Source: Chara braunii (taxonomy: Eukaryota; Plantae; Charophyceae). Taken from it: DNA of 64,000 nucleotides. The notes under the pieces are model-generated. The model made no database searches and had not been told where the DNA came from. It was given only the letters and a program-made list of their open reading frames with translations. The position numbers and the translations under genes were made by a program. Positions 8,481 through 62,870 of the stretch are shown here, in pieces; position 1 is the stretch's first letter; every line of letters starts with the position of its first letter. Where the stretch lies: assembly GCA_003427395.1 (NCBI GenBank), contig BFEA01000001.1, forward strand, positions 12,823,012 to 12,887,011. The letters are read 5' to 3'.

Positions 8481-8899
8481 ACTGTGGCGTTCCCCCGCAT
8501 GCAAAGTTGCCACTTTCGAGAGTGGTCCGCGACGGGACTGTCCAGGCTCTGGGAGCGTGCGGCCGGCGCGGAGCGTTCCGCCGTAGCGCTACGGGCTCGG
8601 GAGAGCCGGTCTCGTCGGTCACCACCCGAGCATGAAGCCCGGTAAGGTGACAGTCTCTCAGCATCCTGCGCGGCCACCATAGCCATAGCCGTGCCAACTC
8701 GTTCCACTGTTGGAGTCGGGGGGATATGCGAGAACGTCAGCGAGCCAGCATACAGTTTATCAACCTTAATGCTTTCAGTGAGTATCAGGACATGGCCTTC
8801 GTGCCCTGTCCACCATAAGTACCAGGGTGCATCAACCCTCAGACAACATTAGTGCAGGATTCTACCGGCATCGAAGCCCGCCCGGCCAACATTGACCTC

Positions 8900-9417
8900 C
8901 AGCCATCTGGAGCAGCCCGGCCCACGATCGCGGTCAGGTACACATCGCCACCCCATCTCTTCATCAACTCCCCTCCTCGGCACAACGTCACCCGATACGT
9001 TCAATCCGCCACCTCATCTCAACACCATCCCCTCCATACTATTTACCTTTTCGATCTTGTAAGCCTACCTCTCCCACGATCTCCAAATGTAACCATCTCT
9101 ACACCCATGCAGGAGCCGCTGCAACTCATCACTTCACTTGCCACAGCAGCATAGCATCCTACCACCCCTTCTACTCACAGCCTAGTATTACCCCCCCCCC
9201 CCCTTCCTTCCTTCATGATCGCAACCCCGTCACAATCACAATACCCCAAACCGGTTTTAACCCGCCACCGCACCACAGTACCCCCCCATTCTCACCACTC
9301 GCCTCCTCACACTCTCTCTCTCCCCCCTTTCTCCTACATGATCGCACACCTCCGTAATCAGGAATACCCATCCATCTGTAGCAGCCCGGCCCACGATCGC
9401 GGTCAGGTACACATCGC
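8900..9417 (+). mobile_element. LINE 5'-UTR-derived fragment (~470 bp tandem unit); continues at 22262-22479 after insertion of element A
   Basis: near-identical to the reverse complement of ~42780-43215, upstream of LINE ORF1; sequence resumes after element A. Confidence 0.8.
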
Positions 9418-11729
9418 TGTGACGAACCACTTTCTGTAACACGCGATTTTCTGCGCGGTTGCAATGAGGGGTCCTAAGCTGGAAAGATTGGGCCAATTAC
9501 GGGAGATCGGGATCGGTGTAAAATTGCATCAGTGTCCTCGCTTTTTCGTCCTTTTTCATCGTTTCTTTTTCGAATGGCCAAGCACGGGGGCGGGTGTGTC
9601 TTGGGACGGCCGGTGGAGTGATTGGTCGGATGGATGTCTGGCGCGCCACCACGCGCGCAATTAATAAAGGTTGACGTCGTTTCATTCGGTTCGATTTCGA
9701 TCTTTTGGGCGCGGACATCGCGCGGGAAATTGCTTCGTTCTTTTTGAAATTCCTTTTTAATCTTTTCGAATTTTGTCGAGCCCCCGATGGCTCTCGGAAT
9801 TTCGGATTTTCCTTCTGGAACTTATACTTTTTGCTTTTTCGCATTAGATAGGAATTTAGTAATCCAGTAATTAGGACTTTTTCTGCCGCGCGGCGCCTTT
9901 TGTCTATGCGCTTCTTCATGCGGTTGCAACGGTACTCTAATTAGTGGGCGCCCTTAATCGTGTGTGTAACTATAATTTTGGGCGGGCGTCATTGTAACTG
10001 TATCTTTCTTCTTGCACTTCGTCTCTCCCGCCCTCCCTCTCTTTCTTTTGCTGAAATTTTGTAAGCCGCAGTTTGCATGCTCAGATCGATGCGTGGAGAA
10101 GGGTTACGTCCCCCACGCCGCGGTCGATCATGCAGAACGCAGGCGTTCCCTCTCTAATCCTCACTCTAAAATTTCGGCTGCGCGATTAGTCAGCTCTCTT
10201 AACCCATTGTTGGAAGCTCGGGGTTGCGCGATCAAGAAGGGCGGCACACGAGCGAAGTAAGAAGTGAGTAGAGCAGGAGTTGGGCGACCCGACAGGCTGG
10301 TGCCGAACGCACGAGATTGACGTGGGCCACGGCGGACTGTAGGCACGGGCGAATCCGACGGGTGCGGGAGGACTAAGCGGGGTGACAACTTCGTGGGTTG
10401 GTGCGTGACGACGGATTGTCCGCATCGCAGAGAAAGAGAGAGAGGAGAGAGTTGAGGTCGATGGACGCGAATTTGCTGTTTTATTGTCTCTTCCCCCTCT
10501 TCATCTGTGTACATACATTTTGATTGCGGGTCCGGGCGATTTGCGCGTTCTTATTTTCGTTTCGGCTTTCTGAAATCTAGCCTTGGCTTTTTGCTCACAT
10601 TTGTCCTTGCGATGTCTGTCCTGCTTGCATTATGTGTATGATTGCCGAATGTATGGATGTATGGATGNTGCCGAATGTATGGATGTATGGATGTTATGAC
10701 TGCTTGTCTATCTTTTTGCTGAGAATCCCTGTCCTTGCGTTATGTCTGTGTCGAATCTTCGCCTGCACCTGATTTCACTGTAGATGGGATAAGAATCTCG
10801 CACCGATAGTGATTTTGTTCTCGTTTTTGCTTATCCCGCGATGGGGGTTGCGATATGATTGCATCTTGCATAATCGACGATCCGAAGTCTGGTCCCGCGA
10901 ACGCCGCGCGAGAACACGTGTAAACGCGATCCGAGTCGCGCCCTTACACGCATTCCCGCGCGTCGATTCACTCACCCAAAAAGGAATCACGGCGGAACCA
11001 TCATCCCGTACGAGCACGCTGCGGCGCCACTGAGTCTGCCTGTCCTTCACGTGCTCGTGCGCGGTGACGATATCCCGACCGGCGCTATCCCATGGACGAT
11101 GATACCATGACGCGATCTTGAAGCTCGGACTCGTCCTATGACCCTGACTATTTCACCCCTATAATAAACGAGCTCATAAGGACACGATACCCCTGTCACA
11201 CGGAGAATCGGCTATGTCCGCGGGAATTTCACTGTGCCACCTCTAGCGACCCTCGATGCTCCAATTTCCCTTCTCCCGACCACACCTACTACTTCACCCA
11301 CCCGGGATTTGTTGAGATCACCACCAGTTTCCCTCCTTTCCGCCTTCTTCTCCCGTATCATCAACTCAGTGTCGTTCCGTGGCCGGCCATAGTCCCCTAT
11401 TGGCCCAATACGTTTTGCGTGAACTGTCGACGCAGCGGTGCACAGAGAACCACGGAATTCCGAAGGCCCAACCCAGGTACGCGGCGGCCCCCGACGGCCT
11501 AACTTTTCAGGACCATCTCCACCACGGAGGAATTTTTCCGTAACCCGTCGCCCACAGTGTCCTGGCCCCTTCGGACTGTGAGACCCTTGCGCGCGCCCCC
11601 CCTCGTTCGCCTAATTGCATTCATACCCTTAAGACTCCCCCACTTCCCCCAAAAATCCTTGGCACACCCCTTTTCACACTTCCAGGCCCACACTCCACTC
11701 TGATCAGGAAGTCGCGCTGGGCGTGAGGT
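9418..11729 (+). repeat. Element A 5' LTR (lacks the terminal tgggcgtcaca)
   Basis: aligns with 19925-22250; ends gcgtgaggt immediately before the PBS. Confidence 0.9.
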
Positions 11730-11742
11730 TGGTATCGGAGCC
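11730..11742 (+). promoter_or_regulatory. Primer binding site, initiator tRNA-Met type
   Basis: TGGTATCGGAGCC versus canonical TGGTATCAGAGCC; 141 nt upstream of the gag ATG. Confidence 0.85.
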
Positions 11743-11883
11743 CGACACGTGGCCAGGGTCTTAGGATTGATAGCACGTTAATTAGGTTACCTGGCTAACC
11801 GTGGGCGACCTCGCCCCCGGACCACGCATAGACGCAACCCTATTGTCACCCGAAGCAGATCGACTAATCGACGAGCAGCCAAT

Positions 11884-14800
11884 ATGGCTGCCAACGCGCA
11901 GAACCCGGTTCCGCAACAAATTGCTTACCCACCAAATCAACCTGCCCCACGTGCACGAGCTCCCATGACGCCACCTGATCTCTATTTGTTTGATCCCGCA
12001 CACCATCTCGCAGGAGCATGGCTGGCCACACTTAGAGCCCAACAGTACACTGACAACGAAGCACAGATCAACATTCCGGCTCGAATGGGAGGAGACACTC
12101 ATCATTGGTTTAGTACCTATGTATGGGTGGATCTCACGACCTTCGAGCGGGACTTTATGAACCGATTTGATTATGTCCACCCGGAGCAAGCGCTGTACAT
12201 GATCAAGGACCGAGTGCAAAAACCGCTTGAATCCGTCGCGGAATATCGAAATCGGTTCTACAGAATGTTCGTAAAAACTGAGCGAGGTGAGCAAGTAGGG
12301 AGAGATATGTTCATTGACGGACTCCGCAGCCGGACAGTAAGGGCTCAGTTGTGAAAGCAGTTTTCCCCCATCAACCATACGCTACAACAAATTATAGCCG
12401 CTGCGGAAGAAATGGAACGGAAGTTCGTGGCGAACTTCCTGGAAGGAGAAGATTACCCTAGAGACGGAGATTCGACCGAGCTCGCTCGAGCAAGAGCAGA
12501 GCTGGCCGCTTTACAGAACAAATTTGAAAACATGGGGTTTGTATCAGGACCTGTCACCTATATGGAACAGATAGGCCCCAAACGAGTAATCCTAAGAGAG
12601 ACTCCGAGCATCTCTGCTCATATGATGCCCCCCCCCGTCAGGTCATTACCCTCGCCGCCGGTTGAGGCTCCTGTAGGATCAAACGAATCAGCGGCCATTT
12701 TCGAACTAACCAAAACTTTGATCAGTTTGATCCAAGAAAGTAAAAAGGAGCAGCGAGAGCACAATGCTCGGCTGGAAGCCATGACGAGGAACATGCGACC
12801 CATTGCGGTGCGTGCCCCTCCGATGCAGCAAGGATTAGCCCCAGCCCCTGCTCTCGGGGGAGCTGCGAACAATCTCAATATCTGCTACGCCTGTCATCAG
12901 CCCGGACATCTAGCCCACGATTGCCCCCACCGACCCCCACAACAGCGGATCGGGGTCGCACCTATGGCTGCGGCCCCCATCGCCAACGGACCTGGACGAG
13001 TCGGAGCTTTGATGGAAGAAATAGAGGGTGGGGGAAGTGCCCTGGCTACCTCGGAAGAGGCCGCCGAACTAATCCCGCTAGATCAGTATGCATCACTGGG
13101 ATATCATGGGCTTGGAATGATCGGAACAATCAGACCAGCACCATAACCAAAAGAGGTGGCAGAGTGGCGACCGTCCCTAGGAGAAATGGAGTCGGGAGGA
13201 CCCACCTTCGTCATAGGGGAGATCGATGTATTAAACATCATCCGAGCTTTGGACCATTGGATTCCCCTTCCGATTGGTCATCTGCTCTCGATCTCCGAGC
13301 AAGCCAACGAGCGAATGTTGCAGCATTGCAAAGCGAACCGAAAGCGATTCACCCTTGGCCGAACCCCGAACGTGAAAGCCAAAAGCCCCGCGCCCGAAGA
13401 AAACCCCGCAAGTACTTCGGATCCGATATGGGTAGGTTTAATCCGGAAAGATGATCATTTCCTGCGGATTAAACCAATTCTGTGAAAATCCGCCAAGTAT
13501 GATATAGAAATTTGGGGAATTCCTTACAATGCTATTATAGATTCAGGAGCAACTGTGTTGGCTATCTCACTGAGAGTGGTCGAAAGGGCAGGTAGGAAAA
13601 ACGACTTGATCACGCTTTTTTAAAAAGATCAGCTCGTTTCGGCTGACGAAGAAAGAATTAAAACTCTAGGAAGAATGACCAATGTCGCTTTTCGATTGGG
13701 TAAAGTGCATGCGCTTGGGGATGTCGTAGTACTAGATGTCAATACGTACGACGTTCTTTTCGGACTTCCCGCTCTTGTGGCGTTACGAGCAAACCTGGAC
13801 TTCGAACGACGATCAATCGTCCTCCGAAATACAGGAGGAAAACCCTACGCTGTGCCTATGCGATTGACCCTTCGCACTACTATTAACGTGGTTCCACGGG
13901 TTTCGCCGATGATGGCAGGGACTCTCCGCATGATCTCCTGGGAGAAATCCGCAGAAGGAGAGTCATCAACAGATGATGCGGAAAGCAGTGACGAGGATGA
14001 TCCAGAGATCTTGAAATTAGCACGACAACGTGTTTGTTACCCGCCACCCAAAACGATAGCGAGAACGATGCAACTAACCAGCCGAAAAATCCAAAGGACC
14101 AAGGCGATGATCTTGGGTGAGCCCCTCGTGCAGATTTCGAGGATGGTCGATTCTTTGGAACCCCCTCAAACTCTGTATGAAGGAATCGCCCTTCTCCTCG
14201 CCCGGTACAGCGACAAGAAGCATTACTGTGACATTACGGATCTACCCAAGTCCTTACTAACCTCGGCTAAAGAAGTGAGATTGTTACGCTTGGGGGCGGA
14301 AGCAAGCTCTCTGGACCCCCCTGGGCGTTTTGAAGCGGAAACCGACGGACAAGGGATAAAGATCGCAACTAAGGAAGTGCCGTGGCAGGATGTTTGTGAT
14401 GGGATTACCCCGGAAGGACACGTGGCAATCCGAGAAGAAGATGCTCAGATGATGGCCACAGTGTTCTCCTGGCGATCGGATCATTTATTCATCTTGGCGC
14501 CTCCACCCAACTTGACAAAACAGGCGAACACGAAACAGATTGACGTTCGGAGTTGGGACCAAAAGCCAGCGGTTGGATTGAACCCGCTTCTGGACCCTGG
14601 TCCTTTCCCGTAGTGTTAGTACCGAAGAAGAACGGAGTGATTCGCATTTGCATTGATTATCGCAAGCTGAATGAAATCACGAGATCTGTATCCCCTCCCC
14701 CGGATTGATGATCTGGTGGATGCGATTGGATGCGCTAAATATTTCAGCAAGTTTGATATTCGGCATAGCTTCCATCATATTCTGGTAAGGGAAGAAGACC

Positions 14801-15897
14801 GACCGAAAACGTCCTTTGTGTTGTTTGAGGGCACGTGGCAGTGGGTTCGGTGTCCGATGGGGATTTGCAATGCGCCTGCCACGTTTCAGCGAGCGATGAA
14901 CATGATGTTTCAGAACTTCGTTAGCAAGACACGGCTGACGCAAGGAATGATTAACTTTTGCGTGATCGTGTACATGGACGACATCCTGGTCTATTCGGAA
15001 ACCTATCACGGGCACGCGCAACACATCGAATGGACATTGGGTGCATTGAGAGACGCAAGGTTCAAGATTGCGCTTGAGAAGAGCGAATTTTTCCTCTCGG
15101 AAATTTCGTTCTTGGGCTATGTCGTGACACGTAGAGGATTGCGGCCAGATTCGAGAAAAGTTGCGGCGGTGAAGGAAGCTCCGGTTCCTACGTCACTTAC
15201 GCAGGTTCGAGCCTTCTTGGGACTGGCGTCATACTATCGGCGCTTCATCAAGGGCTCTGCCGCGATTGCATGACCACTAACGAATCTGCTACGGAAGGAC
15301 CAGCCTCTTAGCTGGGACGGGGAGTGCCAGCAGGCCTTTGCAACCCTCAAGGACGCTCTGGCAACGGCCCCTATTTTGATTCCACCGGACCCCTCGAAGC
15401 AGTTTATTCTCATCACGGACTGGCAACCGGAAGCTATTTCCACTATTCTAGCGCAAAAGGGGAACGATGGTCGCGAACACGTCATCGAGTATGCATCACG
15501 AACCGTACCGGACGAACGAAGAAACGACTCCGCACCTCAGGGTGAGTGATATACGGTAGTTTGGGGAATCCAACACTTCCATCCGTATCTCTACGGACAT
15601 AAGTTTCGCCTCGTAACGGATCACGAGCCTCTGCTGGCGTTGAAGAAACTCACCAACTACACGGGCATGATTGGCCGCTGGGCGGTGCGACTACAAGAAT
15701 ACGACTTCGATATCGTCCATCGAAAGACAGAGCGACAAGGCAACGCGGACGGGCTGACACGTCTGCATTGACCTGCCAAGGTACCAAAGGGCGAGGAAAT
15801 TACACCGTGGAAAGAGTCGGACCTGACTAACGAGCCGAAGTACTGACAAGTGGCAGTTCTCCCACGTGGCAAGAAGCAAAACGGTGGCGATGGGTGA
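11884..15897 (+). pseudogene. Element A gag-protease-RT-RNase H polyprotein (disrupted; no integrase in this frame)
   Basis: CCHC knuckle CYACHQPGHLAHDC; protease IIDSGA; RT LPRIDDL, CPMGICNAPATFQ and YMDD; RNase H LITDWQ, LVTDHEPL and NADGLT. ORFs at 11884, 12412, 13156 and 13675 share one frame broken by point stops. Deletion near 14560 relative to copy B. Confidence 0.92.
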
Positions 15898-17620
15898 TGG
15901 AGGTAACCCCACTACCCCTCTTTCTCCCCCTTCCTCCTCGTCTCTCCCCTCCCTGGCTAACAAATTTTGCTATTTTTGCGAAGCCATCTCCCTCGTCTAT
16001 TCGGTCTCCATACGTCCTAACGAGGTGGGATATGCGGATTGGATAGATTGCTAACAGTGTGTTGCCCGGCCCCACAGCTCGTGCATCCACTACAGGAACG
16101 ATAGTAAACCATGGTTGTGCCCCTTGTGCTGGACCGACAAAATTCTGACCGAGGCTCGCTTTTTGGATGCCACGTCAGAAGCATTGGAAAAGACCAGAAA
16201 GTTTAGAAGGGCCGAAGTGTGGACGAATATTGCCTTAATTGCCATCCTAGTAGGTAACCCCCTCCAGGATTTCACCAAGGAAGATCAGAGGAGGGCCAAC
16301 GAAAGGGCTCGGGACTATCGATGGGTAGAAGGTAGATTAGAAAAATGGAAAACGGACGGCAGTGGGATTTGGATGGTAGTGCCGCATCCGTTCATGCGGT
16401 ATGACTGCGTTAAGACAACCCACGAGGAAACTGCGGCTCATTTTGCTGTACGAATCACGGAGTCCGCTATCGACAAAAATGAGTGGTACTGGTCCAATAT
16501 CCGTGACGATGTGAAGTACATCGTCGCCACCTGTCAAGTCCGTGCCGCTGATAAAGCGTCGATTCAGCCGCCAAGGTCGATAGTGCCCACGGTTGTTGAA
16601 CAGCCATTTCAAAGAGTAAGCATGGACACTACCGACATAGCGGTGCCCCCCGGCCCTAATAGTTGCGAATATTCAGTCCTATTGGTATTTGTCGACCATT
16701 TCTCGAAATGGATCGAAGCATATCCTTGTGGCACGCAGCAAGCCACGAAAATAGCACGATATGTCAACCGTTTCCTCGGAATGCATCAGGATACGGAAGA
16801 AATCCTGACCGACAACGGGGCTGAATTTAGGGGAGAAGTGTTAAGGAATCTGGTCCTACATGGCGTCGCCATACGGAACAAACACTGCACCCCACATGTC
16901 ACAATCCAATGGGCTGGTCGAAAACGCTAACCGGATGATAAAGACAGCATTGCGACGAAACATTGAGGCACGGGATCCGAGACCTTGGCCCGATATCGTC
17001 GATCACATCCTGGCGGTCCATCGTGGAATGCCCACAAATCGACAGGGCTGAACCCCTTCCAATTAAGGACCAATAGTGTCGCTTGTGTTTCGATACCAAA
17101 CCTCCCGGATGAGTCTACATTGAACCGACGACCCACCAGGGTCACAACTCGGGACAAGGCCAAACGACACCTAGAGTTAATGGAACGGTCGCTGCCCAGG
17201 CTAGCCCGAAAGCGACAGAAAATGACCAAACTAGCCCAGGGCCGACAGGTCCGGAGCTACGAGGCTCGAAATGGGAATGTGGGTCCACAGCCCCAGTACA
17301 AATTGGGGGACGTAGTGCAGGTGAGGAAATGTGCTTGCCAGGGTAGGCTAGCGCCACGATTCTTCGGGCGATACCGCGTGATTGAGCTCGACCCCAACAG
17401 CGTGGACACTGTGCGTCTCGCCCCTGAAGTCTCTGGCAGCCGATCGGCGCGCCCGATCACCCGCCACATGTCCTATCTTCGCCTCCTCCCCTCTGCTCCG
17501 TCCCCTTCTCCCTCGATCTCTCATTCCGAGGAAGCCGAAGACAACGGCTCTAACTCTCCTCCATCTCCCTTTTCATCTTGCTCCCTCCCTGTTTCCCCGT
17601 CACCTTCGCCATCGCCATGA
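15890..17620 (+). pseudogene. Element A separate integrase ORF with N-terminal PHD finger
   Basis: CYFC...WIDC(Q)QC....H..C...WLCPLC (C4HC3); HHCC HEETAAH...CQV(C); DDE SMDTTD / LTDNGAEF / SNGLVE; GPY/F-like PRFFGRYRVIE. One stop (16052) and one frameshift (~16878). Confidence 0.9.
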
Positions 17621-18093
17621 ACTTTCTGGAGGAGAAAGCCCTCAGCAAAGCATCGCTTGCGCCTCGTGATCAGTTGACGATCCGGCAAGTCCATCATCCC
17701 CGCCTCAGTCCAGATCTTCGGCGGTTTGCGCACTTCTTCTGCACGGAAGGCGTGTATGCAGCAGCGGTGTTCAGAATTGAAGGCCATCCTGACGCGGTGG
17801 TACTGGCCGAGGCAGTAGCAGTTCATCAACGGGCGTTGCCAGGTGTCAGTCGCATATCGGTCGTCATCAACTTCAGTGGCGATCTCTCCACACTTCTTCC
17901 TTTGCGACATTCGACGGTGAAGGCGTCGCTGCGCATGTGGGCGAACGATCTGGTCGCCGAGTGGACTCAGCTGCTGGCTCGCCCCGAGGATACAATCGCG
18001 ACATCACGAGCAATCGAATACGACGACCTTCAGATGTACCAGCACGATCCGCCGGCAGAGCTCCCTGTCCTCGTACCCTTCCCCCATCCCTAA
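17617..18093 (+). CDS. Element A accessory ORF3 (158 aa, unknown function)
   Basis: ATGA overlap with the integrase stop; MNFLEEKAL...VPFPHP; homologue in copy B (27212-26755). Confidence 0.7.
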   Translation: MNFLEEKALSKASLAPRDQLTIRQVHHPRLSPDLRRFAHFFCTEGVYAAAVFRIEGHPDAVVLAEAVAVHQRALPGVSRISVVINFSGDLSTLLPLRHSTVKASLRMWANDLVAEWTQLLARPEDTIATSRAIEYDDLQMYQHDPPAELPVLVPFPHP

Positions 18094-19205
18094 TGAGTCT
18101 CTCTGCGATCTCCGTTTTCGATCTCCCCTCCACCTTCCCCACCTTCTGACAATCCGATATCCATCCTCGCCTTTCCTACTGTCTAAAGCCCCTTGCTGTC
18201 CCCGATATCCATCCTCCCCATTGGGTCCTGTGGCGCGAAGACTTCATCAAGCGTTCATTGTGCTTGGTTGAGGTACGACTGACGTGGATCGAGGACGAAG
18301 CGCACCCGCCTTGCATAGTAGAGCGCCTAAAGTTGCTGTTCATCCAGGCCTGGCGAACCAACGTGGAGGGAGAGCTCCTCGCATTTCTATTCGGTACAGT
18401 GCGGCCCGGTCATCAGAAACTCATCACGCAAGAGCTCACGATCCCGGTAGCGCAGCTGGCGGACGATCTCCCCCTCGACATCATCTCGCAAGACGATGAG
18501 CATCCAATTCCCCATGTACTTTATTGCGCATTGACGCCCTATCTTCAGTGGTCGGCTTGTGTAGAGGGAGCCGCAGAGCGCATCCCGCCGTCGCAGCAAC
18601 AATATCTCGATCCCCGGACGGCTCGCGATCCTGCCTTCTTCAGGCATCCTACGGCGGAGCAGCTTGCGGCCATTCGAGAAGAAGAGGAGGAGGAAGAGAG
18701 TACCGGGAGTGACGAAGACGACGACGGACTGGAAGAAGGCGGGAACAGCGACGAAGAGCTCGGGGAAGAAGACAAAACCCCCGAAGAAGGAAGCTATAGC
18801 GAGCATAGCGAGGGCAAATAGAGCAAAGAAGGAGAAGAAAGTGAGGAAGGAGAAGAGGAGCACGACGAAGAGCCTGCTGGATCGGAGTGGGAAGCCGTGC
18901 CAGAAGAAGTGCTTCGTACGGGTACGGAGGCTGAGGATCCCGAGGCGGCCCTCAAAAGAGAAGAGATCGCGGCCGGGAAGGAGTTTGAATTCGCAAGCGT
19001 GACGAGTTTGCGCACCCACGACGACCCAAGCCGCCATCCGGAGCCGCCCCGGCCTGAAGATGGCGACCTCACAGCCACGACTCCGACCCCATCAGCGAGG
19101 CGACGGAGCCGATCCCCCTCCTCCTCAACCAGTCCCCCAGTTCACCGACGTACCGATACGGGCGATCGGCCTTCGTCCCCGATCACTCTCTCGTCGTCCC
19201 CTTGA
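18093..19205 (+). pseudogene. Element A accessory ORF4 (~370 aa: globular N-half, long acidic tract, RS/P-rich tail)
   Basis: TAATG overlap; segments at 18093, 18258 and 18897 are in one frame with two point stops; homologue in B (26758-25651). Confidence 0.7.
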
Positions 19206-19391
19206 CTACCTCACCCTCCGCCAGCTCACCACTCCCATTACGTTCCCCTCCAATCCGTTTCCCCATGACACCTTCCGCCACTTCTACCCTGCTCGCCTAC
19301 ATTGGTGCATCCCCACCCCTCCATTCGATGCGCCGTCCCAGCCTTCTGCCTCCATGTCTTGCTCCTTAGTGCCGCGTGGCGAGGTCACAAC

Positions 19392-19679
19392 ATGATCGAG
19401 GTTTATTGCGTGATAACGGGGACCATCCCCGCATGCGAAGATCGCGATCGTTTCCATGCGGCACTTTTCCGGACTCTCACCACCCTCTATCCTGATTATC
19501 TCGCATCCCTCCCTCGCACCGGCAATCACTTCCCCCGCTTTCATCGCATCGTTCGTTACCAAGAGCTTCCGGAGACTGTAGCCGGAATGGAAAACCTTCT
19601 GCCCCCCGTACCCATAAACCCTCCACCCCGCCATGCTGCCATGCACCGACTCCCTTTTCCCCTCCTGATTAATTACTGA
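19392..19679 (+). CDS. Element A accessory ORF (95 aa, MIEVYCVITG...)
   Basis: ATGA start overlap and TGATG end overlap; conserved in B from 25460. Confidence 0.55.
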   Translation: MIEVYCVITGTIPACEDRDRFHAALFRTLTTLYPDYLASLPRTGNHFPRFHRIVRYQELPETVAGMENLLPPVPINPPPRHAAMHRLPFPLLINY

Positions 19680-19984
19680 TGCAACCGGTAATGGACGCGT
19701 GTCACGGCGACGGCACGAGAAAGATCCCGTCCTTGGGTCGTCGAGAGCCCAATCTGAGGAATTTGTAGAAGAGCGGTGATGCCACGTTGGATGATGTTCA
19801 CACGCAATCAAACAGTAAGTGGCATAGAAAAAAGTGCTCCTCGTATCGATCAAGTAGAAAAATCGACACGTGTCAACAAGCAAGCAGGAGCTTGCTAATA
19901 TTGGAACCCCCTGGGCGTCACATATGTGACGAACCACTTTCTGTAACGCGCAATTTTCTGCGCGGTTGCAATGAGGGGTCCTAA
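19679..19984 (+). pseudogene. Element A accessory ORF (MQPVMDAC...) reading across the internal junction into the 3' LTR
   Basis: TGATG overlap; open for 134 aa in copy B (25173-24769). Confidence 0.4.
19912..19931 (+). other. Internal end-to-end (att-like) junction tgggcgtcaca-ta-tgtgacg containing a perfect 16-bp palindrome
   Basis: CGTCACATATGTGACG at 19916-19931; identical in B at 24921-24936. Confidence 0.92.
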
Positions 19985-22261
19985 GCTGTGAAGATTGGGC
20001 CAATTACGGGAGATCGGGATCGGAGGAAAATTGCATAAGTATCCTCGCTTTTTCGTCCTTTTTCATCGTTTCTTTTTCGAATGGCCAAGCACGGGGTCGG
20101 GTGTGTCTTGGGACAACCGGTGGAGTGATTGGTCAGATGGATGTCTGGCGCGCCACCACGCGCGCGATTAATAAAGGTTGACGTCGTTTCTTTCGGTTTG
20201 ATTTCAATCTTTTGGGCGTGGACATCGCGCGGGAAATTGCTTCGTTCTTTTTGAAATTCCTTTTTAATCTTTCTCGAATTTTGTCGAGCCCCCGATGGGT
20301 CTCGGAATTTCGGACTTTCCTTCTGGAATTTGTGCTTTTTGTTTTTTCGCATCAGATAGGAATTTAGGAAGTCAGTAATTAGGATTTTTCCTGCCGCGCG
20401 GCGCCTTTTGTCTACGCGATTCTTCACGCGGCTGCAACGGTACTCCGTGTGTGTAACTATAATTTTGGGTGGGCGCCATTGTAGCTGTATCTTTCTTCTT
20501 GCACTTCGTCTCTCTCGCCCTTCCTCTCTTTCTTTTGCTGAAATTTTGTAAGCCGCGGTTTGCATGCTCGGATCGATGCGTGGAGAAGTGTTACGTCCCC
20601 CACGCCGCGGCCGATCATGTAGAACGCAGGCGTTCCCTCTCTAATCCTCACTCTAAGTCCTAGTAATTCCGTGTTCTTCGTGCATGCATGCACACTATAA
20701 ATTTCGGCTGCGCGATTAGTCAGCTCTCTTAACCCGTTGTTGGAAGCTCGGGGTTGCGCGATCAGGAAGCGTCGGCACACGAGAGAAGTAAGAGGTGAGT
20801 AGAGCAGGAGTTGGGCGACACGACAGGCTGGTGCCGAGCGCACGGGATTGACGTGGGCCACGACGGACTGTGGGCACGGGCGAATCTGACGGGTGCGGGA
20901 GGACTAAGCGGGGTGACAACTTTGTGGGTTGGTGCGTGACGACGAATTGTCCGCATCGGAGAGAAAGAGAGAGAGGAGAGAGTTGAGGTCGATGGACGCA
21001 AATTTGCTGTTTTATTGTCTCTTCCCCCTCTTCATCTGTGTACATACATTTTGATTGCGGCTCCGGGCGGTTTGCCCGTTCTTATTTTCATTTCGGCTTT
21101 CTGAAATCTAGCCTTGGCTTTTTGCTCACATTTGTCCTTGCGATGTCCGTCCTGCTTGCATTATGTGTATGATTGCCGAATGTATGGATGTATGGATGTT
21201 ATGACTGCTTGTCTATCTTTTTGCTGAGAATCCCTGTCCTTGCGTTATGTCTGTGTCGAATCTTCGCCGCACCTGATGTCGCTGTAGATGGGATAAGAAT
21301 CCCGCCCCGATAGTGATTTTGTTCTCGTTTTCGCTTATCCCGCGATGGGGGTTGCGATATGATTGCATCTTGCATAATCGACGATCCGAAGTCTGGTCCC
21401 GCGAACGCCGCGCAAGAACATGTGTAAACGCGATCCGAGTCGCGCCCTTACACGCATTCCCGTGCGTCCATTCGCTCACCCAAAAAGGAATCGCGGCGGA
21501 ACCATCATCCCGTACGAGCACGCTGAGGCGCCACTGAGTCTGCCTGTCCTACACGTGCTCGTGCGTGGTGACGATATCCCAACCTGCGCTATCCCATGGA
21601 CGATGATACCATGACCCGATCTTGGGGCTCAGACTCGTCCTATGACCCGGACTATTTCACCCCTATAATAAACGAGCTCATAAGGACACGATACCCCTGT
21701 CACACGGAGAATTGGCTATGTCCGCGGAAATTCCACTGCGCCACCTCTAGCGACCCTCTGTGCTCCGATTTCCCTTCTCCCGACCACAACTACTACTTCA
21801 CCCACCCGGGATTCGTTGAGATCACCACCAGTTTCCCTCCTTTCCGCCTCCTTCTCCCGTATCATCAACTCAGTGTCGTTCCGTGGCCGGCCATAGCCCC
21901 CTATTGGCCCAATACGTTTTGCGTGAACTGTCGACGCAGCGGCGCACAGAGAACCACGGAATTCCAAAGGCCCAACCCAGGTACGAGGCGCCTTGCGCCA
22001 CGTGGCGGCCCCCGACGGCCTAACTTTTCAGGACCATCTCCAGCATGGAGGAATTTTTCCGTAACCCGTCGCCCACAGTGTCCCAGCCCCTTCGGACTGT
22101 GAGACCCTTGTGCGCGCCCCCCCTCGTTCGCCTAATTGCATTCATACCCTTAAGACTCCCCCACTTCCCCCAAAAATCCTTGGCACACCCCTTTTCGCAC
22201 TTCCAGGCCCACACTCCACTCCGATCAGGAAGTCACGCTGGGCGTGAGGTTGGGCGTCACA
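19925..22261 (+). repeat. Element A 3' LTR including the terminal tgggcgtcaca
   Basis: direct repeat of 9418-11729 plus 11 extra terminal bases. Confidence 0.92.
21611..22102 (+). CDS. LTR-encoded ORF (~163 aa, MTRSWGSDSSYDP...), unknown function
   Basis: open in the A 3' LTR; protein-level similarity to 45910-45362 in diverged copy C; ATGA overlap with the preceding LTR ORF ending at 21614. Confidence 0.65.
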   Translation: MTRSWGSDSSYDPDYFTPIINELIRTRYPCHTENWLCPRKFHCATSSDPLCSDFPSPDHNYYFTHPGFVEITTSFPPFRLLLPYHQLSVVPWPAIAPYWPNTFCVNCRRSGAQRTTEFQRPNPGTRRLAPRGGPRRPNFSGPSPAWRNFSVTRRPQCPSPFGL

Positions 22262-24768
22262 TCGCTACCCCATCTCTTCATCAACTCCCCTGCTCGGCAC
22301 AACGTCACCCGATACGTCAAGTCCGCCACCTCATCTCAACACCATCCCCTCCATACTATTTACCTTTTCGATCGTGTAAGCCTACCTCTCCCACGATCTC
22401 CAAATGTAACCATCTCTACGCCCACGTAGGAGCCGCTGCAACTCGTCACTTCACTTGCCACTGCAGCATAGCATCCTATCTCTAGAAATCGTGAAAACAG
22501 GTTCGAGAGGCCTCATCGGCGCACTGCGCTCTCGAAGGGGGCGCTCTCCGCTGTGTCGGAAAAGACCTGCGTTTTTCGAGAGTGCACTGTGGCGGTGCTG
22601 TGACGCCCAACCTCACGCCTGGCGCAACTTCCTGATCGGAGTGGGGTATGGGCTTGGAAGTGCGGAAAGGGGTGTGCCAAGGATTTTTGGGAAAGTGGGG
22701 GAGTCTTGAGGGTATGAATGCAATTAGGCGAATAGGGGGTGCGTGCGCGAGGGACTCAAGGTCAGATGGGGCTGGGGCACTGTGGGCGACGGTTGACGGG
22801 GAAATCCCTCCGCGGTGGAGGCGGTTCTGAAAAGTTGGGCCGTCGGGGCCCGCCACGTGGCGCAGGCCGCCGCGCGCTTGGATTGGGCCTTCGGAATTCC
22901 GAAGTTCTCTGTTCGCCGCGACGTCGGCAATTCACGCAAAATGTACCGGGCAATAGGGGGCTATGGCCGGCCACGGGACGACGCTGAGTTGATGATACCG
23001 GAGAAGAAGGCGGAAAGGAGGGAAACTGGTGGTTATCTCAACAAATTCCGGGTGGGTGAAGTAGTAGGTGTGGTCGGGAGAAGGGAAATCGGAGCATCGA
23101 GGGTCGCTAGAGGTGGCACAGTGGAATTCCCGCGGACATAGCCGATTCTCCGTGTGACAGGGGTATCGTGTCCTTATGAGCTCGTTTATTATAGGGGTGA
23201 AATAGTTCGGGTCATAGGACGAGTCTGAGCTTCAAGATCGCGTCATGGTATCATCGTCCATGGGATAGCGCAGGTCGGGATATCGTCACCGCGCACGAGC
23301 ACGTGTAGGACAGGCAGACTCAGTGGCGCCTCAGCGTGCTCGTACGGGATGATGGTTCCGCCGTGATTCCTTTTTGGGTGAGTGAATCGACGCACGGGAA
23401 TGCGTGTAAGGGCACACGCGGCGTTCGCGAGACCAGACTTCGGATCGTCGATTATGCAAGATGCAATCATATCGCAACCCCCATCGCGGGATAAGCAAAA
23501 AATGAGAACAAAATTACTATCGGGGCCAGATTCTTATCCCATCTACAGCGACATCAGGTGCAGGCAAAGATTCGACACAGACATAACGCAAGGACGCGGA
23601 TTCTCAACAAAAAGATAGACAAGCAGTCATAACATCCATACATCCATACATTCGGCAATCATACACATAATGCAAGCAGTACAGACATCGCAAGGACAAA
23701 TGTGAGCAAAAACCCAAGCCCAGATTTCCGAAAGCCGAAACGAAAATAAGAACGGGCAAACCGCCCGGACCCGCAATCAAAATGTATGTACACAGATGAA
23801 GAGGGGGAAGAGACAATAAAACAACAAATTCGCGTCCATCGACCTCAACTGTTTCCTCTCTCTCTTTCTCTGCGATGCGGACAGTCCGTCGTCACGCACC
23901 AACCCACGAAGTTGTCACCCCGCTTAGTCCTCCCGCACCCGTCGGATTCGCCCGTGCCCACAGTCTGTCGTGGCCCACGTCAATCCCGTGCGTTCGGCAC
24001 CAGCCCGTCGGGTCGCCCAACTCCTGCTCTACTCACTTCTTACTTCGCTCGTGTGCCGACCCTTCCTGATCGCGCAACCCCGAGCTTCCAACAACGGGTT
24101 AAGAGAGCTGACTAATCGCGCAGCCGAAATTTATAGCGTGCATGCATGCGAGAAGAACACGGAATTACTAGGACTTAGAGTGAGGATCAGAGAGGGAACG
24201 TCTGCGTTCTGCATGAGCGGCCGCGGCGTGGGNGACGTAACCCTTCTCCACGCATCGATCCGAGCATGCAAGTCGCGACTTACAAAAATTTCAGCGAAAG
24301 AAAGAGAGGGAGGGCGGGAGAGACGAAGTGCAAGAAGAAAGATACAGTTACAATGGCGCCTGCCCAAAATTACAGTTACACACACGATTTAAGGGCGCCC
24401 GCTAATCAGAGTACCGTTGCAGCCTCGTGAAGAATCGCGTAGACAAAAGGCGCCGCGCGGCAGGAAAAATCCTAATTACTGACTTCCTAAATTCCTATCT
24501 GATGCGAAAAAACAAAAAGCACAAATTCCAGGAGGAAAGTTCGAAATTCCGAGAGCCCTTGGGGGCTTGACAAAATTCGAAAAGATTCAAAAGGAAATAC
24601 AAAAGGAACGAAGCAATTTCCCACGCGATGTCCGCGCCCAAAAGATCGAAACCGAACCGAAAGAAACGTCGTCAACATTTATTAATCGCGCGCGTGGTGG
24701 TGCGCCAGACATCCATCCGACCAATCAATCAATCGGCCGTCCCAGGACACACCCAACTCTGAACCCAG

Positions 24769-27212
24769 TCATCCGGCAAGGGGCGACGAAAAAGACGAAG
24801 AAAAAAAGGGTACTGATGCAATTTTCCACCGATCCCAATTTCCCGTAATTGGTCCAATCTTCCCAGCTTCGGACCCCTCGTTGCAACTGTGCAGAAAATC
24901 GCACGTTACAGAAAGTGGTTCGTCACATATGTGACGCCCAGGGGGTTCCAATATTAGCAAGCTCCTGCTTGCTTGTTGATACGTGTCGATTTCTCTAATC
25001 GATCGACACGCGGAGCACTTCTCTTTATGCCACTTACCGTTCGATTGTGTGTGGACGTCATCCAACGTGACAACACTGCTCTTCTGCAAGTTCCTCAGAC
25101 TGGGCTCTCGACGATCCAAGGATGGGGTCTTTCTTGTGCCGTCGCCATGACAAGCGTCCATTACCGGTTGCATCAGTAATTAATCAGGAGGGGGAAAGGG
25201 AGTCGCTACATGGCGGCATGGTGGGGCGGAGGGTTTATGGGTAGCAAGGGCAAGAGCCTTTCCATTCCACCTACAGTCTCCGAAAGTTCTTGGTAGCGAA
25301 AGATGTGGTGAAAGCGGGGGAAGCGGTTGCCAGTGCGAGGGAGGGACGCGAGATAATCGGGATAGAGGGTGGTAAGAGTCCGGAAGAGTGCCACACGGAA
25401 ACGATCGCGATCTTCGCATGCGGGGATGGTCCCCGTTATCACGCAGTAGACCTCGATCATATTGTGGCCTCGCCACGCGGCACTAAAGAGCAAGACATAG
25501 AGGCAGAAGGCTGGGACGACGCATCGAATGGAGGGGTGGGGATGTACCACTATAGCGAGGCGAGCAACGTAGAAGTGGTGGAAGGTGTCACGGGGAAACG
25601 GATTGGAGGGGAACGTGATGGGGGTGGTGAGCTGGCGGAGGGTGAGGTAGTCAAGGGGACGGCGAGAGAGTAATCGGGGACGAAGGCCGATCGCCCGTAT
25701 CGGTACGTCGGCAAACTAGGGGACGGGTTGGGGAGGAGGGGGATCGGCTCCGTCGCCGCGCTGATGGGGTCGGAGTCGTGGCCTCGAGGTCGCCAACTTC
25801 AGGCCGGGGCGGCTCCGGATCTCGGTTCGGGTCGTTGGGAATCTGCAGGCTCGCCCCGCTTGCGAGCTCTAACTCTTTCCCGTCCACGATCTCTTCTCTT
25901 TTGCGGGCCGCCTCGAGATCCTTTGCTTCTGTACCCGTACGCAACGCTTCTTCTAGCACGGCTTCCCACTCTGATCCAGCAGGCTCTTCGTCGTGCTCCT
26001 CTTCTTCTTCCTCGTCCTCTTCTTCTTCTTCGCTCTGTTCCCCCTCGCTATGCTCGCTATAGCTTCCTTCTTCGGGGCTTTCGTCTTCTTCCCCGAGCTC
26101 TTCGTCGCTATCCCCGCGTTCTCCAGCCCGTCTTCATCTTCATCACTCCCGGTACTGTCTTCCTCCTCCTCTTCTTCTTGAATGGCCGCAAACTGCTCCG
26201 TCGTAGGATGCTTGAAGAAGGCAGGATCGCGAATCGTCCGGGGATTCAAATATTGTTGCTGCGACGGCGGGATGCGCTCTGCAGCTCCATCTACACAAGC
26301 CGACCATTGAAGATAAGGTGTCAATGTGCGAGAAAGTACATGGGGAATTGGATGCTCGTCGTCTTGCGAGATGATGTCGAGAGGGAGATCGTCAGCCAGC
26401 TCCGCCACCGGGATCGCGAGCTCTCGCGTGATGAGTTTCTGATGACCGGGCCTCACTGTACCGAATAGGAATGCGAGGAGCTCTCCCTCCACGTTGGTTC
26501 GCCAGGCCTGGATGAACAGCAACTCAGGCGCTCTATGCAAGGTGGGTGCGCTTCGTCTTCGATCCACGTCAGCCGTACCTCAACCAAGCACAGTGAAAGC
26601 TCGATGAAGACTTCACGCCACAGGACCCAATGGGGAGGATGGATATCGGGGACAGCAAGGGGCTTTAGACAGTAGGAAAGGCGAGGATGGATATCGGACT
26701 GCCAGAAGGTGGGGAAGGTGGAGGGAAGATCAAAAGCGGAGATCGGGGAGAGACTCATTGGGGACGTGGGAAGGGAACGAGGACAGGGAGATCTGTCGGC
26801 GTCTTACGCTGATACATCAGCAGGCCGTCGAATTCGATCGCTTGTGTCGATGCGAGAAGATGGGTCCACTCGGCGACCAGGTCATTTGCCCACGCGCGCA
26901 ACGATGCCTTCACTGCTGAATGCCGTAGGGGAAGGAGCGTGGAGAGATCGCCCCGGAAGTTGATGACGACCGATATACGGCTGACCCCTGGCACTGCTCG
27001 CTGATGGACTGCTACTGCTTCGGCCAGTACCACCGCGTCAGGCCGACCTTCGATTCTGAACACCGTCGCTGCGTACACGCCTTCTGTGCAGAAGAAGTGC
27101 ACAAGCCGCCGATGATCTGGACTGAGGCAGGGATGATAGACCTGCCGGATCGTCAATCGATCACGGGGCGCAAGCGCTGCTTCGCTGAGGACCCTTCCTC
27201 CAGAAAACTCAT
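24769..27212 (-). pseudogene. Element B accessory ORF chain (homologues of A 17617-19984)
   Basis: ORFs 27212-26755, 26758-25651, 25460-~25173 and 25173-24769 with ATGA/TGATG overlaps. Confidence 0.7.
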
Positions 27213-28908
27213 GGCGATGGCGACAGTGACGGGGAGGCAGAGAGGGAGCAAGAGGAAGAGGGAGACGGCGGAGAGTCAGAGCCGTCGTTGTCGGCTTCCT
27301 CAAAAAGAAAGATCGAGGGAGAAGGATACGGATCAGAGGGGAGGAGGCGAAGATAGGACACGTGGCGTGTGATCGGGCGAGCCGATCGACTGCCAGAGAC
27401 TTCAAGGGCGAGACGCACGGTGTGCACGCCGTTGGGGCCGAGCTCGATCACACGATATCGCCCGAAGAATCGTGGTGCTACCTTACCATGGCGAGCACAT
27501 TTCCTCACCTGCACCACGTCCCCCAATTTGTACTGGGGCCGCGGACCCGCATTCCCATTTCGGGCCTAGTAGCTCCGGACCTGTCGGCCTTGGGCTAGTT
27601 CGGTCATTTTCTGTCGTTTTCGGGCTAGCCTGGGCAGTGACCGTTCCATTAGCTCTAGGTGTCGTTTGGCCTTGTCCGTAGCCGTGGCCCTGGTGGGCCG
27701 TCGGTTCAATGTAGACTCATCTAGGAGGCTTGGTATCGAAACGCAAGCGATGCTATTGGTCCTTAATTGGAAGGGGCTTAACCCCGTCGATTCGTGGGGC
27801 GTTCCGTGGACCGCCAGAATGTGATCGACGATATCGGGCCAGGGCCTCGGATCCCGTGCCGCGATGTTTCGTCGCAATGCTGTTTTTATTACCCGGTTAG
27901 CATTTTCGACCAGCCCATTGGATTGTGACATGTGGGGTGCAGTGTTCCGTATGGCGATGCCATGTATGACCAGATTCTTTAACACTGCTCCCCTTAATTC
28001 AGCCCCGTTGTCGGTTAGGATCTCTTCCGTATCCTGATGCATCCCGAGGAAACGGTTGACATATCGCGCGATCTCCGTGGCTTGCCGCGTGCGACAAGGA
28101 TCCGCTTCGATCCATTTCGAGAAATGGTCGACAAATACCAATAAGACTGAATACTCGCAACTATTAGGGCCAGGGGGCACCACTACATCGGTAGTGTCCA
28201 TGCTCACTCTTTGAAATGGCCGTTCAACAACCGTGGGCACTATCGATCTCGGTGGCTGAATCGACGCTTTATCAGCGGCGCAGACTTGACAGTTGGTGAC
28301 AATGTATTTCACATTGTCACGGATATTGGACCAATACCACTCATTTTTGTCGATGGCTGACTCCGTGATTCGTACGGCAAAATGGGCCGCATTTTCCTCG
28401 TGGGCTGTCTTAACCCAGTCATACCGCATGAACGAATGCGGTACCACCATCCAAATCCCACTGCTGTCCGTTTTCCGTTTTTTTAATTTACCTTCTATCC
28501 ACCGATAATCCCCAGCCCTTTCGTTGGCCCTCCTCCGATCTTCCTTGGTGAAATCCTGGAGGGAGGCAATATCAGTCCATACTTTAACCCCTCTAAACTT
28601 CCGGGTCTTTTCCAACCCTTATGACGTGGCATCCAAGAAGCGAGCCTCGGTGGAATCTTGTCGGTCCGGCACAAGGGGCACAACCACGGTTTTCTATCGT
28701 TCCTGTATTGGATGCACGAGCCATGAGCTCGCGCGACACACTGTTGGCAATCTATCCAATCCGCATACCCTTCCCCGTTAGGGCGCATGGAAACCGAATA
28801 TACGCGGGAGATAGCTTCGCAAAAATAGCAAAATTTGTCAGGCAGGGAGAGGAGAGACGAAGAGGAAGGGGGAGAGAGAGGGGTAGTGGGGTTACCTCCA
28901 TCACCCAT
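27209..28908 (-). pseudogene. Element B PHD-integrase ORF
   Basis: intact PHD CYFC...WIDCQQCVARAHGSC...WLCPLC; HEENAAH...CQVC; DDE motifs; frameshift near 28630. Confidence 0.9.
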
Positions 28909-62540: not shown

Positions 62541-62870
62541 AACGGCAGCGCTTCGCCGTGTTGTACCACCGTAAAAAAGACAGCGCTTCGCCGTGCTGTA
62601 CCACCGCAAAAGACGGCGGCGCTTCGTCGTGCCGTACCACCGTAAAAAAAATGGCAGCGCTTCGTCGTGTCATACCACCGTAAAAAACAACGGGAGCGCT
62701 TCGCCGTATTGTACCACCGTAAAAAGACGGCGGCGCTTCGCTGTGCCGTACCACCGCAAAAAGACGGCGGCGCTTCGCTATGCCTTACCATCGTAAATAG
62801 ACGGCGGCACTTCGCCATGTTGTATCACCGCAAAAAGACGGTTGCGCTCCGTCACGCTGTACTACCGTGA
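62541..62870. repeat. Minisatellite, ~37-bp unit, about 8-9 copies
   Basis: aaaagacggcggcgcttcgccgtgctgtaccaccgta repeated with variation. Confidence 0.9.

Follow-up and report, generated by a model that had tools for sequence, protein, structure and literature searches.

How an LTR retrotransposon would express a series of genes placed downstream of its polymerase, and by which route ribosomes would reach each of them, is the question raised by this locus. The window (the whole stretch of DNA that was analysed, 64,000 nucleotides) contains two decayed copies, A and B, of a Ty3/Gypsy family of Chara braunii, in which gag, protease (PR), reverse transcriptase (RT) and RNase H (RH) share a single frame and are followed by a separate integrase (INT) ORF, four more sense ORFs, and one ORF inside the LTR. 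The family is high-copy in this freshwater alga. A preliminary description had called the element a plant Gypsy; the Gypsy type stands, but the host is a charophyte alga and not a land plant. The features are as follows:

9418 to 11729, forward strand: 5' LTR of copy A, starting TGTGACG and ending GTGAGGT, without a terminal CA
11730 to 11742, forward strand: primer-binding-site-like stretch directly 3' of the 5' LTR
11884 to 15897, forward strand: gag-protease-RT-RNaseH in one frame, broken in A by stops and a deletion
15890 to 17620, forward strand: separate INT ORF, broken in A and B
17331 to 19059, forward strand: AUG-poor stretch, with 2 ATGs common to A and B beyond the ORF3 and ORF4 starts
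17508 to 17530, forward strand: pyrimidine tract and AG, conserved between A and B and 87 nt upstream of the ORF3 AUG
17617 to 18093, forward strand: ORF3, 158 aa, with a predicted alpha/beta fold and no known family
18093 to 19205, forward strand: ORF4, about 370 aa, with 2 stops in A
19060 to 19679, forward strand: ORF5, in the +1 frame relative to ORF4, start uncertain
19679 to 19984, forward strand: ORF6, 101 codons, crossing into the 3' LTR, with one stop in A
19912 to 19931, forward strand: internal copy of the right end (TGGGCGTCACA), followed by TA and by the start of the LTR, without difference between A and B
19925 to 22261, forward strand: 3' LTR of copy A, ending GTGAGGT TGGGCGTCACA
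21596 to 22102, forward strand: LTR ORF, start at 21596 or 21611, 163-168 aa, no known family
22599 to 34750, reverse strand: copy B, 87-88% identical to A, with layout and asymmetric ends as in A
Cut off at 34750, reverse strand: 5' LTR of copy B
45153 to 45910, reverse strand: remnant of an LTR from a distant relative, carrying the right end of the family and an LTR-ORF homolog

Textbook Gypsy elements carry the integrase inside Pol, are bounded by two identical TG...CA LTRs with a polypurine tract, and rely mostly on spliced or antisense RNAs for their extra ORFs. The Chara family departs from this plan in the place of the integrase, in the LTR ends and polypurine tract, and in the likely expression of its extra ORFs. 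Its resemblance to Ty3/Gypsy (Metaviridae) lies in direct LTRs, a primer-binding-site-like stretch and a target-site duplication, all of which are present, in the PR-RT-RH-INT order, and in an RT of Ty3 type. The gag-pol frame (dN/dS 0.11-0.23) has Pfam matches to Retrotrans_gag, zf-CCHC, RVT_1 and RT_RNaseH, the protease match underlying the domain order being weak (E=0.016), and the best named solved-structure match of the RT is the Ty3-G Gag-Pol chain (E=3e-33), an assignment that rests on the match and not on a tree. Unlike Ty3/Gypsy, INT lies outside the Pol frame, which stops at 15897 in A and B and where nine gene models end, and INT starts with a PHD-like finger (E=0.004, under the curated cut-off), followed by H2C2, rve, an SH3-like part and a Ser/Pro tail; a Pfam search gave no chromodomain match on its end. 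The five extra sense ORFs, the 5' LTR without a CA end and the lack of an adjacent polypurine tract are further differences.

The downstream frames are under purifying selection. For the claimed frames dN/dS is 0.20-0.50, as against 0.67-2.25 for other frames (Fisher p 2e-9 to 8e-3), with values of 0.22, 0.23 and 0.35 for INT, 0.20 for ORF3, 0.29 and 0.50 for ORF4, 0.21 for ORF5 from 19392 on, 0.31 for ORF6 (Fisher p=0.006; third-position test p=0.18), and 0.23-0.25 for the LTR ORF in three LTR comparisons. The ORFs are thus separate and conserved, and neither fused nor near a dN/dS of 1, and they are packed as tightly as in a virus genome. The basis of these selection tests between A and B, and of the DNA-level junction counts, is two copies, both decayed.

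The preliminary description had proposed six junctions at which stop and start codons overlap, and each of the six is found at its stated place (15890, 17617, 18091, 19392, 19677 and 21611), as is the CAATGA that copy B carries at ORF3/ORF4 (26760-26755). Four of them, at pol/INT, INT/ORF3, ORF3/ORF4 and ORF5/ORF6, are real junctions, with the ATG offset from the upstream stop by -5, -1, +2 and +2, respectively, and in neither copy is any of these ATGs preceded by an earlier in-frame ATG within its open frame. An overlap is therefore found in 4 of 5 neighbouring pairs of selected ORFs; with 0.012 ATGs per nt, the chance that one falls in the right frame no more than 12 nt from a stop is about 0.049, from which simple arithmetic gives about 3e-5 for four of five pairs. 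The C-rich upstream tails that had been described are found in A at INT/ORF3, ORF3/ORF4 and ORF5/ORF6 (40-43 C per 100 nt), but not at pol/INT (23).

The other two motifs are not junctions, although copy B keeps the letters of all five cassette motifs. The ATGA at 19392 lies 187 nt past the ORF4 stop (19205), leaving no overlap at ORF4/ORF5, and what ends at 19395 in A is the upstream frame of ORF5 itself, shifted because A and B differ by 4 nt near 19297. The register of a distant family member agrees with that of B and not with that of A, and it leaves no room for an ATG at the place of 19392; from these alignments the Met at 19392 is probably internal to ORF5. Within the LTR, the ATGA at 21611 is present in 4 of 4 LTR copies, but the frame upstream of it has no shared ATG and no significant selection (dN/dS 0.59-0.96), and the motif was rejected as a junction. 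A coding frame in LTR positions 20000-21370 was also rejected, the low values being scattered over frames and pairs among many tests.

Beyond their starts, ORF3 and ORF4 are nearly devoid of AUG codons, with 2 shared ATGs in 1,583 nt versus 68 in 5,123 for ORF-defined bounds (p=2.8e-6), or 11 versus 106 when an ATG in either copy is counted (p=1e-4), and none of ten control trinucleotides is depleted in them. As a composition control, D/H/N/Y codons before G end in T or C at ratios of 4:18 (A) and 5:16 (B), whereas other following bases give 32:14 and 32:10 (p about 1e-4 for the difference), a bias that core genes lack (p=0.50, 0.29). In gene models, Met makes up 0.2-0.7% of ORF3 and ORF4 stretches versus 2.7% in RT and 3.3% in Gag, although RNase H stretches are also Met-poor (0.39%), which speaks against the depletion argument. 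The AUG-free INT tail is of low complexity. Start contexts are moderate for ORF3 (gccAUGa), weak for ORF4 (cua/ccaAUGa), and strong at 19060 (aagAUGg), the candidate ORF5 start, which is an ATG in A only and GTT in B; the weak ORF4 context, with a Pro codon before Met, recurs in P0029. The codon at 19060 is D/H/N/Y in 81 of 81 models, as at other conserved Asp positions, and is merely compatible with a start. The ORF3 start Met is found in 15 of 19 gene models overlapping ORF3, preceded by Ala in all three that show the upstream residue, and 51 of 56 models reaching the ORF4 end stop there. Upstream of 19392, in-frame conservation of ORF5 is suggestive and not significant (22 vs 13 changes), with few differences between A and B.

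Leaky scanning, unlike reinitiation, predicts a depletion of AUGs within ORF3 and ORF4, and we lean towards a reading in which INT and the five accessory proteins are expressed from separate conserved frames by mixed routes, ORF3, ORF4 and ORF5 by leaky scanning from one entry point. Because gag-pol-INT is AUG-rich, such scanning could hardly begin at the genomic 5' end, and the entry point would lie near the end of the integrase gene. Scanning of the tungro- and badnavirus type would call for a capped RNA with its 5' end upstream of the scanned ORFs. Entry might be supplied by a subgenomic RNA, either spliced at the putative acceptor at 17508 to 17530 or started internally within the pyrimidine-rich tail of INT, or alternatively by ribosomes that are set free where INT terminates. 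As INT and ORF6 both come after AUG-rich ORFs, they would need true coupling (or, for INT, a +1 shift); coupling is plausible for both, at ATGggTGA and TGATG, respectively, as reinitiation without a calicivirus-type TURBS. Long ORFs without internal AUGs and with their stop and start codons fused are, in the excerpted text of PMC5902531, the leaky-scanning layout of RTBV and badnaviruses.

The preliminary description had instead proposed one genomic RNA, with the downstream ORFs translated by successive termination-reinitiation at the overlaps. The four real overlaps belong to types (AUGnnUGA, AUGA and UAAUG) that the part of PMC3542737 consulted lists for caliciviruses and influenza B, the ORF3/ORF4 overlap is kept in two different forms, and the 9 models that terminate at the pol stop all have D/N-G there, compatible with ATGnnTGA. 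However, TGGGA (the UGGGA of TURBS, expected 40-90 nt upstream) occurs within 100 nt upstream at 0 of 7 sites in A and 0 of 7 in B, by which TURBS was rejected, although the same excerpt mentions reinitiating viruses in which none has been identified; five junction-spanning stretches folded into no more structure than their shuffles. Two of the six junctions are lost, ORF4/ORF5 among them having no overlap, and the AUG depletion is left unexplained. Serial reinitiation over five long ORFs would, moreover, yield very little of the last product unless aided by a TAV-like activator, and none was identified. Calicivirus-type reinitiation of all proteins from one RNA is not supported by these results, and successive reinitiation as a whole is unlikely.

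Shifting by +1 at UGA stops is the mechanism of antizyme. Such a shift at pol/INT (GGG TGA) and ORF4/ORF5 (CCT TGA C) would create Gag-Pol-INT and ORF4-ORF5 fusions, the former allowing the customary packaging of INT. In both cases the downstream frame lies in +1 and stays open through the UGA, the INT frame being open for 63 nt upstream in both copies, and there is no ORF5 AUG at the ORF4 stop, yet in A and B alike an ATG with a good context stands as the first codon of INT at the overlap, inspection by eye found no shift motif of Ty1/Ty3 type, and a stimulatory structure is absent from the ORF4 stop (z=0.07). This reading is quite unlikely. Shifts at these two sites can coexist with leaky scanning of ORF3-4. 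It is also quite unlikely that the accessory ORFs are each expressed from an mRNA of their own, spliced or internally started, and that the overlaps are merely tight packing, as might be supposed from pyrimidine tracts with AG common to A and B at 17530, 18097, 18188 and 19369, and from the excerpts of PMC5408684 and, for barley Bagy2, PMC7264820, in which extra ORFs of LTR elements are typically spliced. Separate mRNAs give no reason for the purge of AUGs inside ORF3 and ORF4, the sites at 18097 and 18188 are downstream of the ORF4 start, and no acceptor-like site for INT lies within 15700-15990. Among the 111 (X8) and 241 (X10) reads, mostly from the LTR and at too low a coverage, no spliced or subgenomic RNA was seen, and there was no RNA splice joint among the matches listed.

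The accessory products give few hints of function. ORF3 (structure model pLDDT 73) has no Pfam, PHROG or PDB-sequence match, nothing at E<=0.001 in Foldseek against PDB and a viral library, and no counterpart of similar length among 536 candidates scored (0/536). Its best Atlas score, 0.81 to DUF4192 with a recognition of 2240, under the 2300 mark, is a lead only, and its best VIA-align Z of 6.1, with many GNAT-like rows, is inside the range of common arrangements, so that an acetyltransferase is not claimed. ORF4 consists of a conserved N-terminal domain, an acidic tract and an Arg/Ser/Pro tail; the single-sequence model of ORF5 (pLDDT 38) is unusable. The LTR ORF, with 44.5% identity to its homolog in the distant LTR, matched no Atlas family (best score 0.80), and no recombinase was matched in ORF3-6 by Pfam or PHROG. 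Maximum 19-residue hydropathy is 1.06 for ORF3, 0.95 for ORF4, 0.32 for ORF6 and 0.82 for the LTR ORF (1.87 for B's ORF5 frame), and with no membrane-spanning stretch the products of the former four are unlikely to be Env.

The ends of the element, which the preliminary description did not mention, are also unusual. The LTRs of copy A are 95.3% identical and flanked by a target-site duplication, TCGC (or ATCGC), but in A and B alike GCGTCACA is missing from the end of the 5' LTR, with family reads in agreement, so that TG...CA is not found on both LTRs. Eighteen reads (run X9) continue from the LTR end into the primer-binding-site-like letters, a putative match to initiator tRNA-Met; run X9 is even on both strands, looks DNA-like, and was left out of the expression count. 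On the other side, 140 contigs (X1) continue past 22261 into unlike flanks, and RNA and DNA reads show that the asymmetric ends are common to different insertions. In place of a polypurine tract, a junction-like palindrome CA-TA-TG precedes the 3' LTR, purines making up 7 of the last 15 nt and the best 12-mer (10/12) lying at -46. The missing 5' end, the palindromic end copy and the absence of an adjacent polypurine tract suggest a circular DNA intermediate, with which these end sequences fit. In standard reverse transcription both U5 ends are copied from one template, and the extra right end would therefore have to be re-templated every cycle.

It is possible, if doubtful, that a DDE-integrase LTR lineage has here converged on a pararetrovirus-like life cycle of DNA circle, separate PHD-bearing integrase and polycistronic cassette. 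Reverse transcription would close the circle via three nucleotides, TGG, in which the primer site matches the internal end copy, the separately translated integrase would open it at the CA-TA-TG palindrome and insert it, and the cassette would give five accessory proteins by leaky scanning and coupling. Integration from a circle has long been debated for retroviruses. HIV-1 integrase is able to cut the 2-LTR junction palindrome in vitro, according to the excerpt of PMC1905944.

Parts of this arrangement are found in other systems, as far as the excerpts of the sources cited here describe them. Tungroviruses and badnaviruses (Caulimoviridae) share consecutive ORFs, fused stop and start codons, suboptimal upstream starts and the absence of internal AUGs (PMC5902531), but in them the ORFs that are scanned lie ahead of the polyprotein on the pregenomic RNA, whereas those of Chara come after pol/INT; Caulimoviridae have no integrase and no LTRs, and here both an rve DDE integrase and LTRs are present. 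The same overlap words occur in caliciviruses and influenza B (PMC3542737), and UAAUG coupling in non-LTR retrotransposons (PMC5902531), but the Chara element is unlike the former two in lacking an upstream UGGGA and in having several overlaps in series, not one. Split direct repeats (A1...B1-A2-B2) in the same order characterise PAT, Ngaro and VIPER (PMC6681497), yet the Chara B repeat is 11 nt only, and where DIRS, PAT and Ngaro have a tyrosine recombinase and no target-site duplication, it has an rve DDE integrase and a duplication, with no tyrosine recombinase by Pfam. Ogre, Athila/Bagy2 and Retand/Grande also have, between pol and the 3' LTR, additional conserved ORFs whose function is unknown (PMC7264820, PMC11963269, PMC6431247), but Ogre has one or two, those of Retand are mostly antisense, and sense extra ORFs in plant Gypsy elements are typically env-like with membrane segments, whereas in Chara four sense ORFs abut in series, with an LTR ORF and AUG depletion. 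No relatives were found in viral and metagenome contigs, and the literature titles listed, outside subscription papers and Repbase, included none on this Chara family, cassette or ends.

The 2018 Chara genome paper reportedly noted large Gypsy elements that contain coding regions without a known function. ORF4 pieces are carried by 118 Chara 'hypothetical protein' models, many joined to RT, and the element accounts for these models. If ORF3, ORF4 and ORF5 are indeed reached by leaky scanning, the cassette would be a non-viral example of the pararetrovirus style of translation, and the re-templated ends of the family would make integration from a circle testable in a natural high-copy element.

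The window contains two copies of one Chara braunii retrotransposon:

9418-22261, plus strand: copy A of the element
22599-34750, minus strand: copy B of the same element

The copies are 87-88% identical across long blocks and both contain stops and frameshifts; paired LTRs are 95.3% identical within A and 92.2% within B. Judged by domain order (Pfam matches to gag, zinc knuckle, a weak protease, RT, RNase H, H2C2 and rve) and by its RT, to which Ty3 is closest among solved structures, the element is a Gypsy element, although it departs from that group in three canonical features. The family is highly repeated, as 46,215 contigs of the X1 set align to A. Copy A sits within another repeat with at least three copies in the window (8899-9417, 22258-22478, 42862-43166), an empty-site-like copy of which lies at 8930-8965, and is flanked by a target-site duplication of TCGC (or ATCGC). 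A decayed LINE-like element (endonuclease, RT, zf-RVT; 35174-42064, minus strand) adjoins the cut 5' LTR of B. Elsewhere lie a homeodomain-leucine zipper ORF (2258-3121, minus strand; Homeodomain E=2e-17, HALZ) that is probably a host gene exon, a distant RT remnant (55082-55675, minus strand; 26% identity to the element's RT), and tandem repeats of ~119 nt (50242-51128, partly N-filled) and 37 nt (62536-62868).

Once codons close to alignment gaps, stops or N were removed, dN/dS between A and B in the claimed frame was 0.17 for gag, 0.23 for the protease-linker, 0.11 for RT-RH, 0.22, 0.23 and 0.35 for the INT finger, core and end, 0.20 for ORF3, 0.29 and 0.50 for ORF4, 0.21 for ORF5 and 0.31 for ORF6; the remaining two frames gave 0.67-2.25 (Fisher p 2e-9 to 8e-3 for the INT parts and ORF3-6). 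The weakest signal is that of ORF6, with a third-position p=0.18 and dN/dS of 1.19 over its 19 codons within the LTR. Gene models that start or stop at the same places support the ORF boundaries: 15 of 19 overlapping models contain the ORF3 Met, 12 of them starting there, 51 of the 56 reaching the end of ORF4 terminate at its stop, and all nine ending at the pol stop (eight found by a search directed at that end) have a D/N-G terminus. ORF4 has 118 matches, every one a Chara braunii gene model (identity up to 93%), which points to that charophyte alga or a close relative as host. The PHD-like finger at the INT start (E=0.004) falls below the curated cut-off; PHD-retrotransposon fusions are reported from other lineages (10.1101/2021.11.30.470311). 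ORF3 has a predicted compact alpha/beta fold (pLDDT 73), for which structure and sequence comparisons gave no convincing match. The acidic tract and Arg/Ser/Pro tail of ORF4 suggest, on composition alone, a nuclear or nucleic-acid-related role, and ORF5, ORF6 and the LTR ORF matched no Pfam or PHROG family.

The preliminary description read six stop/start motifs (15890, 17617, 18091, 19392, 19677 and 21611) as junctions of one cassette expressed by termination-reinitiation. All six are present, as is CAATGA at the ORF3/ORF4 junction of B (26760-26755). At pol/INT, INT/ORF3, ORF3/4 and ORF5/6, each overlapping ATG is the first of its frame in both copies, and the chance of four of five ORF pairs overlapping is ~3e-5 (from 0.049 per junction). 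The ATGA at 21611 is not a junction, the upstream frame being no real ORF (dN/dS 0.59-0.96, not significant). Nor is that at 19392: ORF4 stops already at 19205, and near 19297 a 4-nt difference separates the two copies. The Chara gene model P0054 reads beyond the ORF4 stop, with an ungapped match of 34/70 residues to B versus 5/70 to A, and only ACA, ACC, ATA or ATC is possible at its 19392 position. As P0054 is in register with B and cannot encode ATG there, 19392 was rejected as a junction, its Met being probably internal to ORF5, and the ORF5 frame therefore runs back over the ORF4 stop in +1. A candidate start is the ATG at 19060, 143 nt ahead of that stop, in strong context in A and replaced by GTT in B. 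The corresponding residue is D/H/N/Y in 81 of 81 gene models, which would fit an ATG start but is taken as compatible only, since other Asp positions behave alike.

Packing of the ORFs is thus mostly borne out, but a single termination-reinitiation mechanism is not. Calicivirus-type reinitiation depends on an upstream motif (TURBS), and some reinitiating viruses lack one (PMC3542737). Here, no TGGGA occurs within 100 nt upstream of seven sites in A and seven in B, and five folded junction-spanning stretches showed no structure above shuffled controls, which disfavours a calicivirus-type TURBS. The positive mechanistic signal is AUG avoidance in ORF3 and ORF4, whose bodies hold 2 shared ATGs in 1,583 nt versus 68 in 5,123 nt of gag-pol-INT (p=2.8e-6), or 11 versus 106 counting ATGs in either copy (p=1e-4); none of ten control trinucleotides is depleted there. 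In ORF3/ORF4 only, synonymous T is avoided before G (T:C 4:18 versus 32:14 in A, 5:16 versus 32:10 in B, p ~1e-4), with no such avoidance in core genes (p=0.50 and 0.29). Beyond 19063 ATG density is normal again (7 shared in 616 nt), and the start contexts are, in order, moderate, weak and strong. AUG-poor ORFs, graded starts and fused stop/start codons likewise characterize the leaky-scanning layout described for RTBV and badnaviruses (PMC5902531). The abundance of AUGs in gag-pol-INT calls for an entry point near the INT end; a pyrimidine tract followed by AG at 17530 is conserved in A and B. For ORF3-ORF5, ribosomes would enter near the INT end and then scan leakily past weak starts, whereas for INT and ORF6 coupling or a +1 shift is the best guess, since both follow AUG-rich ORFs; we infer every translation step of this scheme from sequence.

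Runs X8 (~6 in 100 of the run read) and X10 (~13 in 100) placed 111 and 241 reads on the element, mostly at 19844-20900 and, on the assumption of ordinary stranded libraries, sense. LTR end-to-PBS (the primer-binding-site-like stretch) was the only RNA joint among those listed, and these data neither favour nor rule against subgenomic RNAs. Run X9, with 2,104 reads equal on both strands, looks DNA-like. Summed X1 contig depth is ~3- to 10-fold lower across ORF3-ORF6 (17373-19843) than over the INT core; in other subfamilies this region may be more diverged, or the cargo different.

The LTR ORF from 21596 has dN/dS of 0.23-0.25 in three comparisons, and a homolog (44.5% identical) is kept in a distant LTR remnant at 45153. 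A second AUG-free run, C-rich, begins within this ORF, takes in the LTR end and the PBS, and reaches as far as the start of gag (21719-22261 and 11733-11883); ribosomes may get to gag by scanning beyond the LTR ORF. Between the LTRs of A (9418-11729 and 19925-22261), differences in this ORF are of purifying type (dN/dS 0.25, p=0.005), which would be unexpected had the two LTRs been identical when the element inserted; possible explanations are transition bias, gene conversion and the use of two templates.

The ends of the element are asymmetric, a feature that had escaped earlier notice. In both copies the 5' LTR closes with ...GTGAGGT, directly followed by the PBS-like TGGTAT..., and the 3' LTR with ...GTGAGGT TGGGCGTCACA. 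These 11 letters recur directly before the 3' LTR and, with the following TA and TGTGACG, form a perfect palindrome in place of the expected polypurine tract. Reads from the wider family are consistent with this asymmetry: in X9, 18 reads cross at 22253 into the PBS sequence, and in X1, 140 contigs depart at 22261 into dissimilar flanks (agreement 0.33). As 49 further X1 contigs carry different sequence before 19896, the final 29 nt before the LTR appear common to variants with other interiors.

Standard reverse transcription produces an identical right end on both LTRs; the extra right end must therefore, we infer, be templated from the internal copy. In the simplest route seen, a hypothesis, plus-strand priming would occur upstream of the internal end copy, a circle would be closed via the shared TGG, and integrase would cut it at CA-TA-TG. 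In vitro, the palindrome at a 2-LTR junction is cut by the integrase of HIV-1 (PMC1905944). The circle is hypothetical because a template switch on linear cDNA could yield the same product. The repeat order, A1...B1-A2-B2, is that described for PAT/Ngaro/VIPER (PMC6681497), from which the Chara element differs by its DDE integrase.

Known plant Gypsy elements have fewer extra ORFs than the Chara element, mostly antisense or env-like (PMC7264820, PMC11963269, PMC6431247), and no description of the Chara family was found in the openly accessible literature. The element is a genuine, apparently undescribed variant, with ends no less unusual than its cassette.
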